Below, one piece after another: positions 6,455 to 30,134 of a DNA stretch of 40,409 nt. The stretch is from an uncultured Deinococcales bacterium. Lineage in GTDB: Bacteria; Deinococcota; Deinococci; Deinococcales; JAAFIG01. Below the pieces are notes generated by a model, which had not been told where the DNA came from, did not search any database, and saw only the letters and a list, made by a program, of their open reading frames with translations. The stretch covers positions 1-40,409 of the forward strand of contig CAXTTL010000014.1 in the NCBI GenBank assembly GCA_964247135.1, written 5' to 3'. The position numbers and the translations under genes were made by a program. How positions within the stretch are numbered: position 1 is the first letter of the stretch; every line of letters begins with the position of its first letter.

Positions 6455-6529
6455 GGGAGCGTAGCTCAGCGGTAGAGCGTTGCACTTACACTGCAATGGT
6501 CGGCGGTTCGATCCCGTCCGCTCTCACCA
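6455..6529 (+). tRNA. tRNA-Val (TAC)
   Basis: GGGAGCG/CGCTCTC acceptor stem, TTGCA-CTTACAC-TGCAA anticodon arm, GTTCGAT T-loop, encoded CCA. Confidence 0.95.
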
Positions 6530-8184: not shown

Positions 8185-8206
8185 AAACGTGTGCTAAAAT
8201 CGTGGC

Positions 8207-8485
8207 ATGAAAAGTGTGCTCGAGAAAGAAACAGCCACCCGAATCAATGTCACCATCCCACCACGGCTTGCACGGTTTTTAGACGAATACCAAACATGGC
8301 ACGGACTCGAGTCACGCAGTGCTGTGGTTGCACTCGCAATTCAGACCTTAAAAGATTTGGACATGGAACGCGGTTATGCCGAACAAGCCGAGTATCAACG
8401 CAAGCACCCCGAGACATTCATCGGATTGGATATAACCGATGGACTTGAACTCGAGGAGAGCAAAAAGTGGACCCGTTCGGCATGA
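8207..8485 (+). CDS. Ribbon-helix-helix antitoxin (MazE/CopG-like)
   Basis: RINVTIP...LDEY...SRSAVV RHH pattern; acidic C-terminus; ATGA overlap with the toxin. Confidence 0.75.
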   Translation: MKSVLEKETATRINVTIPPRLARFLDEYQTWHGLESRSAVVALAIQTLKDLDMERGYAEQAEYQRKHPETFIGLDITDGLELEESKKWTRSA

Positions 8486-8826
8486 AATTACTGCGCCGAG
8501 GCGACATTTATCTCGTGAATTTCAAACCTGATGGACGCGAAGGTGAAGCCGCACAAATTCATCCCGCCATTGTTGTGAGCAACAACCACGTGAACGCCCA
8601 AGCGGTATTGATTCAAGTGATGCCAGTCTCGAGCAATTTAGACCGCGTTTTTCGCAGCGATGTGCTTTTACCAAATCAACGTACAGGACTGGAATTTGAC
8701 AGTCGCGCTCAGGTTGAAATGACCAGGGAGGTTCATGTCAGCCGACTGATCAAATCGCTTGGATTCGTTCCCAACGATTTAATGCGAACCATAGATGACC
8801 GAATCCGCGATCATTTTAACGTCTAA
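8482..8826 (+). CDS. PemK/MazF-family endoribonuclease toxin
   Basis: RRGDIYLVNF.P..GE...HPAIVVSNN...GLEFDSRAQVE; start at ATG 8482. Confidence 0.88.
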   Translation: MKLLRRGDIYLVNFKPDGREGEAAQIHPAIVVSNNHVNAQAVLIQVMPVSSNLDRVFRSDVLLPNQRTGLEFDSRAQVEMTREVHVSRLIKSLGFVPNDLMRTIDDRIRDHFNV

Positions 8827-11509: not shown

Positions 11510-11584
11510 TGGTTGAAGGTACAGGAATCGAACCTGTATTGCCTGTGTATCAGACAGGTTTCCTAACCGTTGGAAGAACCTTCA
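11510..11584 (-). tRNA. tRNA-Ile (GAT), atypical
   Basis: TGAAGGT/ACCTTCA acceptor, TTCC/GGAA D-stem, CCTGT-CTGATAC-ACAGG anticodon arm, ACAGG-TTCGATT-CCTGT T-arm, A-CCA end. Confidence 0.85.
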
Positions 11585-11588
11585 AAAC

Positions 11589-11664
11589 TGGTGATCTCGA
11601 GGGGAATCGAACACCTATTCTCACGTCGAGAGCGTGAAGTCCTAAACCATTGGACGACAAGACC
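11589..11664 (-). tRNA. tRNA-Glu (CTC), atypical
   Basis: GGTCTTG/CGAGATC acceptor (two G-U pairs), TCACG-CTCTCGA-CGTGA anticodon arm, one T-stem mismatch, A-CCA end. Confidence 0.85.
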
Positions 11665-11665
11665 T

Positions 11666-11740
11666 TGGCGGCTCTGGCGGGAATCGAACCCGCACCACTC
11701 GAGAGACAGTCGAGTATCCTAGCCATTGGAACACAGAGCC
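11666..11740 (-). tRNA. tRNA-Asp (GTC), atypical
   Basis: GGCTCTG/CAGAGCC acceptor, CTCGA-CTGTCTC-TCGAG anticodon arm, GCGGG-TTCGATT-CCCGC T-arm, G73 discriminator and CCA. Confidence 0.88.
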
Positions 11741-11803
11741 AAAAATAAAAAACTCGAGTTTGGTCGTAACCTTACTCGAGCAAAAAATGTACGGAAGGTT
11801 ACG
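11741..11803 (-). promoter_or_regulatory. Terminator/antiterminator (attenuator) directly upstream of the tRNA cluster
   Basis: CTCGAGT-AA-GGT-TACG-ACC-AA-ACTCGAG followed by TTTTTTATTTTT. The competing segment CGTAACCTT (11803-11795) is complementary to AAGGTTACG inside the hairpin. Confidence 0.7.
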
Positions 11804-11908
11804 TCAGGTTTGAATGCGTTCAGAATCTCGAGCCTCTGAATCGTGACGAATTTCAGGCGCAATTGGCTCGAATTCGGGGTTGTGTTCGATTGGCTTTGAA
11901 ATCATCAC
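11804..11908 (-). CDS. Putative 34-aa leader peptide MMISKPIEHNPEFEPIAPEIRHDSEARDSERIQT
   Basis: RBS GAGGTG 6 nt before GTG-ATG; the TGA stop abuts the antiterminator strand; 13 of 34 codons are Ile/Glu/Asp. Confidence 0.6.
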   Translation of the reverse strand: MMISKPIEHNPEFEPIAPEIRHDSEARDSERIQT

Positions 11909-12121
11909 GGGACTCACCTCGAGGGCTACTGTACGGCTTGGCTCGAGACTTGACATTCGCCAAATGGCGTAGGCAAGCCCTGCAAACGTTCGTTATCTTT
12001 TTTTTGGTCTAACACTCATTGTAGCCCAAAAGGGCATGAAATAAAACCGTTGCCCAAGACTGATCTCGAGGGTAGACTTGAGGTTGTGTTGTTTGAAACC
12101 CTCAAGCCTTCAGGAGAAACC

Positions 12122-13664: not shown

Positions 13665-15944
13665 GTGAAGGTGCTGGTCGTTGGTGGCGGCGGACGTGAA
13701 CATGCCATCGCCTGGAAGCTCGAGCAAAGCCCCAAAGTCACTCAGGTTTTTGTTGCCCCTGGAAACGCGGGAACGCATCCGAACAACGTCAATATCGCGG
13801 TGACTGAAATCGGGAAGTTACTCGAGTTTACAATTGAAAACCAGATCGATTTTGTGGTGATCGGTCCTGACGATCCGCTCGCGGCAGGCATCGTGGATGC
13901 GTTTACCTTGCGTGGTATTCGCACCTTTGGTCCAACCCAGAACGCGGCGAAACTCGAGTGGAGCAAGGCGTTTGCCAAAGAGATCATGCGTGAAGTTGGG
14001 GTGAAGAACGCTGAGGCTGGCGTGTTTGAAAACCTCGAGACTGCACTTTCTTTCGTGCGTTCCAACCCGTTCTCGAGTCCTGGTTTTGTGGTCAAAGCCG
14101 ATGGTTTGGCGCTCGGTAAAGGCGTGATCGTTTGTGATGATTTAAACGGTGCTGAACAGGCGCTCGAGCGAATTTTTGCTGGGGAATTTGGCGAGGCTGG
14201 CGGCACGGTGTTGATCGAAGAACGCATGAGAGGACCCGAACTCAGCGTGCTGGCGTTCGTGGATGGCAAGACCGTGAAACTGATGCCTGCCGCTCGAGAT
14301 CACAAACGCATTTTTGATGGTGACATGGGCGCGAACACGGGCGGTATGGGCGCGTTCGCCCCAGTGCCAGAGATTTCTACGGCAACACTCGAGGAGATCA
14401 AAACCACGATCCTCGAGCCTGTGGTGCGCGGCATGAACGCCAGGGGAATTCCGTATAAGGGTGTGCTTTACGCGGGTTTGATGTTGACGCCGAACGGCAT
14501 TCGGGTGATCGAGTTTAATTCCCGTTTTGGTGATCCCGAAACCCAAGTGATCTTGCCATTGCTCGAGACAGATTTGCTCGAGGTTTTTGAAGCTTGCGTT
14601 GATGGAACGCTGTCAAATCTCGAGATCAAATGGAAGTCTGGCGCGTGTGCGACGGTGGTGGCTGCAAGTCCAGGGTATCCAGGGAATTACCCCAAAGGAC
14701 TCGAGATTTCAGGACTCGAGCATCAATCTGAAAACGCGCTGATTTTTCACGCGGGAACAAAACTCGAGGCTGAAAAAACCGTGACCAACGGCGGAAGGGT
14801 TCTCAACGTTACAGGCGTTGGTGAAAACCTCGAACAAGCATTGAAGAACGCCTACACTGCCCTCGAGTTTGTGAAATTTGATGGAATGCAGTTTCGTCGT
14901 GACATTGGAAAAACCGTGCCGACTGTGGGTTCTTACGCCTCGAGCGGCGTGAACATTGCCGAGGGAATTCGAGCCGTGCAACTCATGAAAGACGCGGTGA
15001 AAAGCACGCATGATGCTCGGGTTTTGGCGGGTGTGGGCGCGTTTGGTGGGATGTTTGATGCAAGTGCTTTAAAGAACCTCGAGACGCCTGTTTTGGTCGC
15101 CAGCACGGACGGCGTGGGCACAAAAACCAAAATTGCGGCGAAGCTTAACCTTTGGGACGGTATCGGTGCAGACATTGTCAATCACGGGATCAATGACATT
15201 TTGGTGCAGGGTGCAAAGCCACTGTTTTTCATGGATTACATCGCTGCCAGCAAATTGAGCGCGGAATTGGTGGCACGAATTGTCTCGAGCATGGCACAAG
15301 CGTGCAAAGCCGCGAATTGCGTGCTGCTCGGCGGCGAAACCGCAGAAATGCCGAACGTGTATCTCGAGGGTGAGCTTGATGTCGCGGGAACAATTGTCGG
15401 CGTGGTGGACCTTCAAAACGCGGTTGACGGCTCGAGTATTGCCGTGGGCGATGCAATTCTGGCGTTCCCTTCAAGCGGCTTGCACACGAATGGTTATTCA
15501 CTGGCGCGTAAAGTCCTCGAGCAACAAAATTGGTCTGAAGCCCGTGCCGATTTGAACGGCGCAAGTATCGGGCAGGCGCTCCTCGAGCCGCACAGGTCGT
15601 ATTTGGATCATGTCTCAAGTTTGCAAGCTGTTGGAATTGGTATTCACGGTATGGCGCACATCACGGGTGGAGGTTTGTGGGACAACGTGCCTCGGGTTCT
15701 CCCTGAAACTGTGAGCGCCGTTTTCACTCGAGGTTCGTGGGTTGCCCCACCAATTTTTAAATTGATTGCCACCTTGGGCGCAATTGACGAGCGTGAACTT
15801 TTTCACGCGTTCAACATGGGCATTGGTTTTATTGCCGTTGTTCCTCGAGAAGATGCACAAAGAGCCTTGGAGCTACTGCCAGATGAATGTTATTTGGTGG
15901 GTGAAATTCAAGCTCGAGCGACAGAAGCGGTGGTGTTGGTCTAA
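13665..15944 (+). CDS. purD: Fused phosphoribosylamine-glycine ligase / AIR synthase (PurD-PurM)
   Basis: N-terminal half: MKVLVVGGGGREHA, KADGLALGKGV, EFNSRFGDPETQ. C-terminal half: SYASSGVNI, STDGVGTK, GGETAEMP, SSGLHTNGYSL, AHITGGG. One uninterrupted 759-aa frame. Confidence 0.95.
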   Translation: MKVLVVGGGGREHAIAWKLEQSPKVTQVFVAPGNAGTHPNNVNIAVTEIGKLLEFTIENQIDFVVIGPDDPLAAGIVDAFTLRGIRTFGPTQNAAKLEWSKAFAKEIMREVGVKNAEAGVFENLETALSFVRSNPFSSPGFVVKADGLALGKGVIVCDDLNGAEQALERIFAGEFGEAGGTVLIEERMRGPELSVLAFVDGKTVKLMPAARDHKRIFDGDMGANTGGMGAFAPVPEISTATLEEIKTTILEPVVRGMNARGIPYKGVLYAGLMLTPNGIRVIEFNSRFGDPETQVILPLLETDLLEVFEACVDGTLSNLEIKWKSGACATVVAASPGYPGNYPKGLEISGLEHQSENALIFHAGTKLEAEKTVTNGGRVLNVTGVGENLEQALKNAYTALEFVKFDGMQFRRDIGKTVPTVGSYASSGVNIAEGIRAVQLMKDAVKSTHDARVLAGVGAFGGMFDASALKNLETPVLVASTDGVGTKTKIAAKLNLWDGIGADIVNHGINDILVQGAKPLFFMDYIAASKLSAELVARIVSSMAQACKAANCVLLGGETAEMPNVYLEGELDVAGTIVGVVDLQNAVDGSSIAVGDAILAFPSSGLHTNGYSLARKVLEQQNWSEARADLNGASIGQALLEPHRSYLDHVSSLQAVGIGIHGMAHITGGGLWDNVPRVLPETVSAVFTRGSWVAPPIFKLIATLGAIDERELFHAFNMGIGFIAVVPREDAQRALELLPDECYLVGEIQARATEAVVLV

Positions 15945-29762: not shown

Positions 29763-30134
29763 TGGTGGAAGCGGAGGGGGTCGAACCCTCGTCCAAAAAC
29801 CCGTCCAACGGGTGTCTACAAGCTTAGCCTTCGTTTTGATGTCGCACCCGAACGCTCCCAAAGGCAGGATTTCTCGAGCACCAACCCCATTTATTTCGCG
29901 TCTCGGTATGGGGTGTTCTGGACGCTAGCAGTCTTTAGTTAAGCGGGTTAAAAACCAACTGCTGGGTTTTTAAGCGGCTTTCGCTGGGATTAAGCAGCGA
30001 GAAGATTTGCTTCAGAGTTGAAGCTAAGAACATTGTTGCCAGTTAAGGCTTTGGTGGAATATTTTCGAGGCCAACCACCATCCTCGGCTTGCAACCACAT
30101 CTTCAATGATCCCTGTCGAAACCAATACGCTCCC
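29763..30134 (-). ncRNA. ssrA: tmRNA
   Basis: 5' GGGAGCG..GGTTTCGACAGGG; 3' GGACGAGGGTTCGACCCCCTCCGCTTCCACCA with G3-U70; tag ORF GNNVLSFNSEANLLAA* follows TAACT. Confidence 0.95.

Follow-up and report, generated by a model that had tools for sequence, protein, structure and literature searches.

A detached trio of spare tRNA genes with conserved unusual anticodon loops behind a putative leader-peptide attenuator in an uncultured Deinococcales family

The window analysed here (40,409 nt; contig CAXTTL010000014.1 of GenBank assembly GCA_964247135.1, from an uncultured Deinococcales bacterium) carries three tightly packed transfer RNA (tRNA) genes, for Asp, Glu, and Ile, whose anticodon loops are unusual. 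Our reading, to which we give a probability of about 0.55, is that this trio is a detached operon of spare tRNAs from the accessory tRNA array of its family, that it stands under a leader-peptide attenuator, and that its odd loops are conserved hallmarks. The window is contig C14 of a 5.09-Mb assembly of 386 contigs (84% complete), labelled G000 below. The genus set consists of G000 and five sister genomes (G001-G005), and C-numbers denote contigs of the G000 assembly.

The trio, its housekeeping counterparts, and the parent array

The trio consists of the following genes, each found by both ARAGORN and Rfam.

11740-11666, minus strand: accessory tRNA-Asp(GUC); anticodon loop C32 U33 GUC U37 C38, G73, encoded CCA, additional U10-U25 mismatch
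11664-11589, minus strand: tRNA-Glu(CUC); anticodon loop C32 U33 CUC G37 A38, T-stem mismatch U52-C62, two G-U wobbles in the acceptor stem, encoded CCA
11584-11510, minus strand: accessory tRNA-Ile(GAU); acceptor pair U1-A72, discriminator A73, A37 C38 after the anticodon, encoded CCA

The three genes occupy 231 nt, with spacers of 1 nt (11665, Asp/Glu) and 4 nt (11588-11585, Glu/Ile), and scored 59.2 (Asp), 49.1 (Glu), and 60.6 bits (Ile) with the Rfam tRNA model (threshold 29). The loops were read by hand from the anticodon positions given by ARAGORN. The packing, spacers, encoded CCA ends, and loops had all been described in an earlier, sequence-only annotation of this DNA (hereafter the original prediction) and were confirmed by the two programs and by hand reading; the strand, which that annotation did not give, is minus.

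ARAGORN called 66 tRNA genes in the G000 assembly, including canonical Asp-GUC (A37 C38) on C202, Glu-CUC (A37 A38) on C251, and Ile-GAU (A37 A38) on C8. Compared with these host isoacceptors, the trio keeps the anticodon and has U37 C38 instead of A37 C38 in Asp, A37 C38 instead of A37 A38 in Ile, and G37 A38 instead of A37 A38 in Glu. The Rfam scores of the housekeeping copies were higher than those of the trio genes for Asp (67.7 vs 59.2 bits) and Glu (61.5 vs 49.1 bits). The trio is therefore supernumerary to a complete housekeeping set.

A second accessory set was found on C157, where ARAGORN called 22 tRNA genes on a single strand within 3.7 kb. Counting one or two uncalled Gly-UCC genes described below, this array holds 22-24 genes and serves 18 amino acids; exactly Asp and Ile are missing, so that the trio and the array jointly cover all 20 amino acids. 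The array Glu-UUC (C157:3863-3945) is 87% identical to the trio Glu-CUC. An array unit has been defined as at least 20 tRNA genes at a density of at least 2 per kb (PMC4758250, partial text), and long arrays (L-arrays) are defined in PMC8421152 (partial text). With three genes the trio alone falls short of this definition, and the parent array on C157 qualifies; the trio is a fragment of an L-array-type set and not itself an array. The trio is paralogous to the accessory array, and canonical-loop Asp, Glu, and Ile genes lie on other contigs, which supports the statement of the original prediction that the three are not housekeeping copies. Remnants of Asp and Ile at their old sites in the C157 array were not found: local alignments of both gaps with the family Asp and Ile genes were at chance level, about half of 500 shuffles scoring equally. 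A comparison of the sequences upstream of the trio and of the array likewise gave only chance-level short matches, mostly around CTCGAG.

Several details of the array were also observed. The uncalled Gly-UCC genes (one or two, L256:3543-3700 on C157) have an unusual T loop; one scored 47.7 bits with Rfam, and the other was recognised by eye only. The array Leu-GAG (C157:3282-3357) has C33 in place of the universal U33, within a CTCGAG, and is the sole non-U33 tRNA among the 66 of the genome. A 251-codon open reading frame (ORF) within the array (L256:2276-3031) gave no Pfam match. A Pro-UGG and Thr-UGU pair on C305 (4183-4386) has a pyrimidine at position 37 and may represent further decaying duplicates of array genes. 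The neighbours of the array are ordinary chromosomal genes (amidohydrolase, MoeA, and alpha-2-macroglobulin).

Conservation and decay in relatives

The trio DNA was matched in 5/5 other genomes of the genus and in 15 of 18 genomes of the family; a sample of 22 genomes taken across four further families of the order gave no match. In sister genera, the Asp and Ile homologues are members of large arrays that share one gene order (His, Tyr, Asn, Asp, Arg ... Pro, Ala, Val, Ile, Met, Phe, Gln, Glu, Lys ...). In the genus of the window, the arrays are without Asp and Ile, and both genes stand beside purF in 6/6 genomes. The array set, as found on C157, is inherited within the family in ordinary chromosomal surroundings. 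Across the phylum, a pattern for tRNA-Asp with U37 had matches in family f1 (15/18 genomes) and family f3 (7/125) and in no other family (0/220); a reversed control pattern gave one match. Array relatives in sister genera, together with U37 tRNA-Asp in many other phyla (see below), amount to homology with array tRNAs and a patchy, transfer-like distribution.

In the genus alignment, U37 of tRNA-Asp was present in 6/6 genomes, position 38 was C in four and A in two, and the changes in the stems preserved pairing. Family-wide, U37 was found in 10/10 tRNA-Asp copies called by ARAGORN. The 3' two-thirds of the Ile gene were identical in 6/6 genus genomes, and none of the ten Ile copies of the family had A37-A38: four had AC, four AU, and two GC, so that position 38 was not A in any of them. 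A73 was kept in 10/10 of these copies, with U1-A72 in six and C1-G72 in four. According to the available part of PMC13276492, U36-A37-A38, A38 included, is a strict determinant for N6-threonylcarbamoyladenosine (t6A); given this requirement, the family Ile tRNAs with C38, U38, or G37 are predicted to be without t6A.

The Glu gene behaved differently from the other two. It was intact only in G000, had lost its T loop and its ARAGORN call in G003 and G004, and was absent in G001, G002, and G005. Pseudogene features are thus largely present in the Glu orthologues of G003 and G004 and not in Asp or Ile, and the G000 Glu gene still scores 49.1 bits. The oddities of Glu are best read as decay of a duplicate of the array Glu(UUC). 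The original prediction had set conservation of the odd positions in relatives as its own test. This held for U37 in Asp, within both genus and family, and for non-A38 in Ile family-wide; it failed for the Glu oddities, the gene being degenerate or absent in 5/5 sisters. Because U37 of tRNA-Asp is kept in relatives, it is not a product of decay. As a separate observation, the trio Ile of G005 has an insertion of about 35 nt in its D loop, either intron-like or a disruption, and was not called by ARAGORN.

Leader region before the trio

Upstream of tRNA-Asp, a short ORF, an antiterminator strand, and an intrinsic terminator follow one another in this order.

11928..11933, minus strand: candidate -10 hexamer of the leader promoter, picked by eye in the genus alignment; TAnAnT-type in 6/6 genomes, weak
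11915..11920, minus strand: Shine-Dalgarno-like purine stretch, 9 nt before the leader start; GAGG-type in 5/6 genus genomes, weaker in G005
11804..11905, minus strand: leader ORF of 33 codons and stop, with five Ile, six Glu, and two Asp codons
11795..11803, minus strand: region 2, the antiterminator strand, nine bases right after the leader stop, perfectly complementary to 11765-11773
11752..11781, minus strand: terminator hairpin, arms 11781-11774 and 11759-11752, each with CTCGAG; region 3 is 11773-11765
11741..11751, minus strand: U-tract of the terminator, ending one base before tRNA-Asp, with 11 nt from hairpin to tRNA

The leader was 33 codons long in 6/6 genus genomes. Its Ile, Asp, and Glu codons together numbered 13, 8, 10, 11, 8, and 9 of 33 in the six genomes, against a background of 16% (binomial p 0.001-0.14), and formed no tandem runs; an Asp codon and a Glu codon located 5-7 codons before the stop were kept throughout the genus. 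The terminator had a folding energy of -14.2 kcal/mol (z = -3.35), and 11/11 of its pairs formed in 6/6 genomes; it is invariant and hence shows no covariation. Since only 11 nt lie between the hairpin and tRNA-Asp, there is no room for a separate promoter.

The nascent RNA was then folded computationally with the footprint of the ribosome masked, assuming that it covers 15 nt on the upstream side and 12 nt on the downstream side of the A site. In the predicted fold with the ribosome at the leader stop, nothing competed with the terminator. With the A site at least three codons upstream of the stop, the antiterminator was predicted to form before the 3' arm of the terminator had been made. The antiterminator formed by free region 2 had an energy of -12.5 to -14.3 kcal/mol, and only 1-2 of 300 shuffles folded as well. 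Scored by alignment column across the genus, it was 72% paired, compared with at most 48% when slid. An intrinsic terminator therefore lies directly before the tRNAs. In the predicted folds it is mutually exclusive with an antiterminator, and a ribosome halted at the leader stop would hide the 5' strand of the latter.

The same arrangement before the arrays

A similar arrangement precedes the array of G000. Here a 56-codon ORF ends 24 nt before a terminator of -16 kcal/mol, which is located 16 nt before the first gene, tRNA-His, and the bases just after the stop pair with the 5' arm of the terminator. Across the 14 clusters of the family (8 arrays and 6 trio loci), the gap between stop and terminator was 21-24 nt in 14/14, and the post-stop bases paired with the 5' arm of the terminator in 14/14. 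From genus to genus the sequence of the terminator arms varies, and that of the post-stop segments varies with it. The distance from hairpin to first tRNA was 16-32 nt in 7/8 arrays.

We used an automated test for such attenuators, which required a terminator of -10 kcal/mol or lower, an ORF of at least 25 codons ending 10-38 nt before the terminator, pairing of the post-stop segment with 6 or more bases of the arm, and a folding energy in the best 5% of shuffles. The results were as follows.

Family arrays: 7/8 pass (G011 at p = 0.06)
Trio loci: 3/6 pass
Other G000 tRNA genes: 0/41 pass
Random G000 windows: 0/250 pass
Arrays of other phyla: 0/49 pass

Overall, the test was passed by 10/14 family clusters and by 0/340 controls. 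Parts of the arrangement were nevertheless seen in the arrays of other phyla: a terminator-like hairpin preceded the first tRNA in 30/49 of them, compared with 27/250 random windows, and a hairpin plus an ORF ending just before it was found in 18/49, compared with 4/250.

The G000 array leader uses 18 different amino acids; the two it does not use are Asp and Ile, which are also the two missing from the array. This composition was rare by chance, occurring in 5 of 100000 windows of protein sequence and in 16 of 8403 small ORFs from the genome. Where the array does contain Asp and Ile (six cases: G011, G007, G009, G014, G013, and G017), the leader always had both residues. The diversity of amino acids in the array leaders was rejected as evidence in its own right, since 18 distinct residues in 56 are common (P about 0.32) and only the specific absence of Asp and Ile is unusual.

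U37 tRNA-Asp in other phyla and in viruses

A pattern consisting of the Asp anticodon, U37, and a T loop was scanned against one genome per species and matched at least 119 loci; the counts of loci given below refer to the matches listed. ARAGORN confirmed Asp-GUC with U37 in 114 of these 119 loci. At least 8 tRNAs within 8 kb were held by 63 loci, and at least 20 by 18. Judged by the record titles, about nine phyla are represented (Acidobacteriota, Bacteroidota, Gemmatimonadota, Bacillota, Pseudomonadota, Myxococcota, Planctomycetota, Actinomycetota, and Deinococcota). This kind of U37 tRNA-Asp was also seen on a contig of a Nanoarchaeota metagenome-assembled genome (L077), for which a binning error or transfer is possible.

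The 63 array loci were selected on Asp only. Among their other isotypes, pyrimidines at position 37 were almost limited to Glu: Glu-UUC had U37 in 14/42 and C37 in 3/42, and Glu-CUC had a pyrimidine at 37 in 3/11; nearly every isoacceptor besides Asp and Glu was all-purine at this position. Ile-GAU had a non-A38 loop in 15/29.

Mobile elements carry the same feature. The tRNA-Asp of Listeria phage A511 (L132, 28344-33392) has U37 A38; the query matched 53 Listeria phage records, of which A511 alone was read. On plasmid CP136011 of Pseudomonas sp. FeN3W (910 kb), four tandem copies of a Glu-UUC, Asp-GUC(U37), Arg unit lie within 338796-346869. Two jumbo phages had the canonical Asp loop. In a viral sample not chosen on position 37 (120 loci with 95 distinct Asp-GUC genes), position 37 of tRNA-Asp was A in 72, U in 12, G in 8, and C in 3. 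A pyrimidine thus occurred in 15/95 viral tRNA-Asp genes, compared with 8/856 tRNAs of other isotypes at the same loci.

The structural integrity of 118 distinct U37 Asp genes was evaluated. Of the cloverleaf cells, 94.3% were paired, compared with 70% in shuffles and at most 49% when slid, and double changes were seen in 19/21 pairs; genes called by ARAGORN fold by construction, so the weight rests on the double changes in the cloverleaf pairs. G73 was nearly invariant. The identity elements are kept, namely G73 and GUC in Asp and A73 and GAU in Ile. Because U37 is conserved and widespread, and stands in genes whose stems carry double changes, it has, on this comparative evidence, been maintained in a class of mobile tRNA-Asp genes that is itself widespread. 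U37 in Asp and non-A38 in Ile accordingly look like conserved hallmarks of such mobile tRNA sets. A purine at tRNA position 37 has been called "strictly conserved" (PMC7812866, partial text). In the literature searched, U37 in tRNA-Asp was not found; the scope did not extend to supplementary files, which possibly hold relevant tRNA tables.

The genes neighbouring the U37 Asp loci were clustered by BLASTP, and one member of each cluster was scanned against Pfam. An RtcB RNA ligase lay within 8 kb of U37 Asp in 26 of the 119 loci, in several phyla; an SPFH gene was found near 17, an HNH endonuclease near 12, and an RNase T-like exonuclease near 11. In two genera of the family, a Ro60/Rsr homologue (TROVE and vWA domains) lies directly behind the last array gene (L257:6714-8309 in G011 and L258:1458-3047 in G009). 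No Ro60 homologue was found in the G000 assembly by tblastn, and no Y RNA beside the Ro60 genes of G011 and G009 was matched by Rfam at the gathering threshold.

Proposed mechanism and its weighing

From these results, we propose that the trio split off from a long accessory L-array inherited by this Deinococcales family. The array of the genus is left without Asp and Ile, and the trio would supply both, together with a decaying copy of Glu. Transcription most likely starts upstream of the 33-codon leader, which appears enriched in codons for Ile, Asp, and Glu. On reaching the leader stop, a ribosome would cover the nine bases behind it, whereupon the terminator would form and transcription would end 1-11 nt before tRNA-Asp. 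If the ribosome stalled earlier for want of charged tRNA, the nine bases would be free to pair with the 5' half of the terminator, and the polymerase would read into the tRNAs. The main array would be governed by the same device, with a leader that appears to use every amino acid that this array serves. In this model, the tRNAs of the trio would be expressed under such regulation and would be charged. Their odd loops, U37 in Asp and non-A38 in Ile, may make them poor substrates for enzymes that read the loop, the t6A synthase in the case of Ile and some nuclease or modifier in the case of Asp, and may thus confer resistance. Altered loops of this kind are in keeping with a kit whose function has to outlast the disabling of the housekeeping tRNAs. 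The original prediction had suggested stress tRNAs, an idea that gains indirect support from the arrangement of leader ORF, antiterminator, and terminator before the trio.

Several points weigh against this proposal. No RNA run was listed as containing this stretch. A scan with a consensus promoter found none upstream of the trio, although the scanner was crude and Deinococcus-type promoters may differ. The enrichment of Ile, Asp, and Glu in the leader is modest in 4/6 genomes (p 0.03-0.14), and the antiterminator is without compensatory double changes within the genus. The three trio loci that did not pass the automated test cross-pair 8-10 of 13 arm bases, not better than shuffles (p 0.07-0.28). 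In the window's own genus, the array leader of G003 has no Asp codon but has two Ile codons, although the array is without Ile, and the link between leader content and array content represents one evolutionary event and is suggestive only. The decay of Glu and the insertion in the G005 Ile show that selection across the locus was not uniform. The device was not seen before the arrays of other phyla (0/49), where the gene taken as first within 8 kb could have further array genes ahead of it. Charging has been shown for the tRNAs of one L-array only, that of Anabaena, whose Asp has G37; this array was accordingly rejected as proof that U37 tRNA-Asp is charged. To our knowledge, no nuclease that targets tRNA-Asp via position 37 has been described.

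In an alternative view, the trio comprises ordinary constitutive extra tRNA copies whose promoter was missed by the crude scan, and the 33-codon ORF encodes a small protein and has a terminator to itself. The lack of covariation in the antiterminator and the modest bias of the leader agree with this, but the 11 nt between hairpin and tRNA-Asp, and the 16-32 nt in 7/8 arrays, leave little place for such a promoter, and the post-stop bases pair with the terminator arm in 14/14 clusters, while the full test was passed by none of the 340 controls; we consider this explanation unlikely. It is rather improbable that the trio is a functionless, decaying relic of an array, its odd positions being neutral leftovers and its ORF and hairpin incidental. 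Glu, degenerate or lost in all five sisters, the uncalled Ile of G005 with its D-loop insertion, and the U10-U25 mismatch in the G000 Asp are what a relic would show. On the other hand, none of the six genus genomes has lost Asp or Ile from this site, and the stems of Asp have changed in a compensatory way; leader length, terminator, and spacing are likewise conserved in all six, and U37 persists across phyla in genes with covarying stems.

Alternatively, the RNAs might act outside translation, as decoys or sponges for tRNA-cleaving toxins, a role raised for the Anabaena array (PMC8421152, partial text). The RtcB genes near 26 of the 119 listed U37 Asp loci and the Ro60 homologues right behind the arrays of G011 and G009 could be accommodated by such a role. 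However, a nuclease reading the loop would be less easily diverted by a loop unlike that of the housekeeping tRNA, the identity elements are kept in both Asp and Ile, and the logic of the leader fits a function in supply, all of which make a sponge quite improbable. We regard as very improbable that the odd positions are by-products of a genome-wide drive towards the palindrome CTCGAG. This motif is indeed in large excess (320 in the window vs about 7 expected) and covers positions 38-43 of Asp and 64-69 of Glu, with Glu 34-39 one base off the motif; the C33 of the array Leu-GAG lies within it, and both terminator arms consist of it. Nevertheless, neither Asp U37 nor Ile C38 falls in the motif, and CTCGAG was rejected as the cause of both on this ground. 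U37 also occurs in phyla and phages with no reason to expect a CTCGAG excess (the Deinococcus lacus locus has 0 in 8 kb), and the 25 accessory tRNAs contain the motif less densely (3.1 per kb) than the genome does on average (6.7 per kb). The CTCGAG excess did supply both terminator arms, and it may have shaped the Glu loop.

An extension of the attenuator proposal, which we offer as tentative and on balance doubtful, is that the two attenuator-controlled operons form a backup translation kit. The leaders, written in codons for the amino acids served downstream, would sense any shortfall of charged tRNA, for example after the action of a tRNA-cleaving toxin or defence system, and the loops of the spares (U37 in Asp and often in Glu, non-A38 in Ile) would let them escape the disabling enzyme. 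U37 tRNA-Asp would then mark an undiscovered but widespread nuclease or modifier of GAN-decoding tRNAs.

Comparison with known systems

The closest known counterpart is the L-array of Anabaena PCC 7120, which is silent until translation is impaired (PMC8421152, partial text). There, 23 of 26 tRNAs are charged in vivo, the operonic Ile-GAU migrates aberrantly, and HNH and RtcB genes are noted near cyanobacterial arrays, with roles in repair or as a sponge being proposed (same source). The set described here is likewise supernumerary, tightly packed, on one strand beside a full housekeeping set, and patchy in distribution, and RtcB and HNH genes recur near its relatives. It differs in being split into a 22-24-gene array and a 3-gene outpost, in lying in ordinary chromosomal surroundings and being inherited within a family, and in having an apparent leader-peptide attenuator, whereas a direct-repeat promoter is described for Anabaena (PMC8421152, partial text).

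The arrangement before the trio is reminiscent of well-studied biosynthetic operons. Leader-peptide attenuators are known from the trp, his, leu, thr, ilv, and pheA operons and from pheST. As in amino-acid operons, a short ORF with the relevant codons, a stop beside a segment that pairs with the 5' arm of the terminator, and an intrinsic terminator are present. In contrast to these, the targets here are tRNAs and not enzymes, tandem regulatory codons are missing, the array leaders sample 18-20 amino acids, and the device is a prediction from sequence. T-boxes, too, respond to a lack of charged tRNA with antitermination; they bind uncharged tRNA directly and control synthetase and amino-acid genes. 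In the proposed model, by contrast, the ribosome would be the sensor and tRNA genes the output, and Rfam gave no T-box match in the window. Among the titles returned by literature searches, nothing relevant to an attenuator before tRNA genes was found. If the attenuator reading is true, it would answer how otherwise silent spare tRNA arrays are switched on, and tRNA genes would join the targets of leader-peptide attenuation.

Phage tRNAs have been proposed to escape anticodon nucleases through changes in the loop (PMC10264068, partial text), and PARIS and the tRNA-Lys of T5 provide a case of a phage tRNA and an anticodon nuclease (PMC11464382, partial text). The main text of PMC10264068 makes no mention of Asp or position 37. 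As with those phage tRNAs, the mobile-element tRNAs considered here differ from the host in the anticodon loop while the anticodon is kept, and U37 tRNA-Asp occurs in phages (12 of 95 sampled viral tRNA-Asp genes). The likeness ends at the enzyme, as we know of no nuclease reading position 37 of tRNA-Asp. A structurally intact lineage of U37 tRNA-Asp in well over a hundred species and in well-known phages offers a handle on the purpose of mobile tRNA sets.

Other features of the window

The neighbours of the trio are ordinary chromosomal genes, namely ornithine cyclodeaminase, purF, a purD-purM fusion, and purB. The fusion is a single ORF at 13665-15944 (plus strand) joining GARS (purD) and AIR synthase (purM), with purF upstream and purB downstream. 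Between the leader and purF, in the half of the intergenic region nearer to purF, a conserved palindromic block at about 11960-12049 was found in 6/6 genus genomes; it resembles a PurR-type operator. CTCGAG is the most frequent hexamer of the genome (33925 copies) and reached 5.8-8.5 per kb in all family loci.

At a distance of 2.7 kb from the trio lies a PemK/MazF-type toxin ORF (8467-8826, plus strand; Pfam E = 2.7e-20), with a small ORF before it (8191-8448, plus strand) as a candidate antitoxin. In relatives, purF alone keeps synteny with the trio, and the toxin ORF does not. The window also holds a transfer-messenger RNA gene (29763-30134, minus strand, 169 bits) and a housekeeping-type tRNA-Val(UAC) (6455-6529, plus strand, 68.8 bits).

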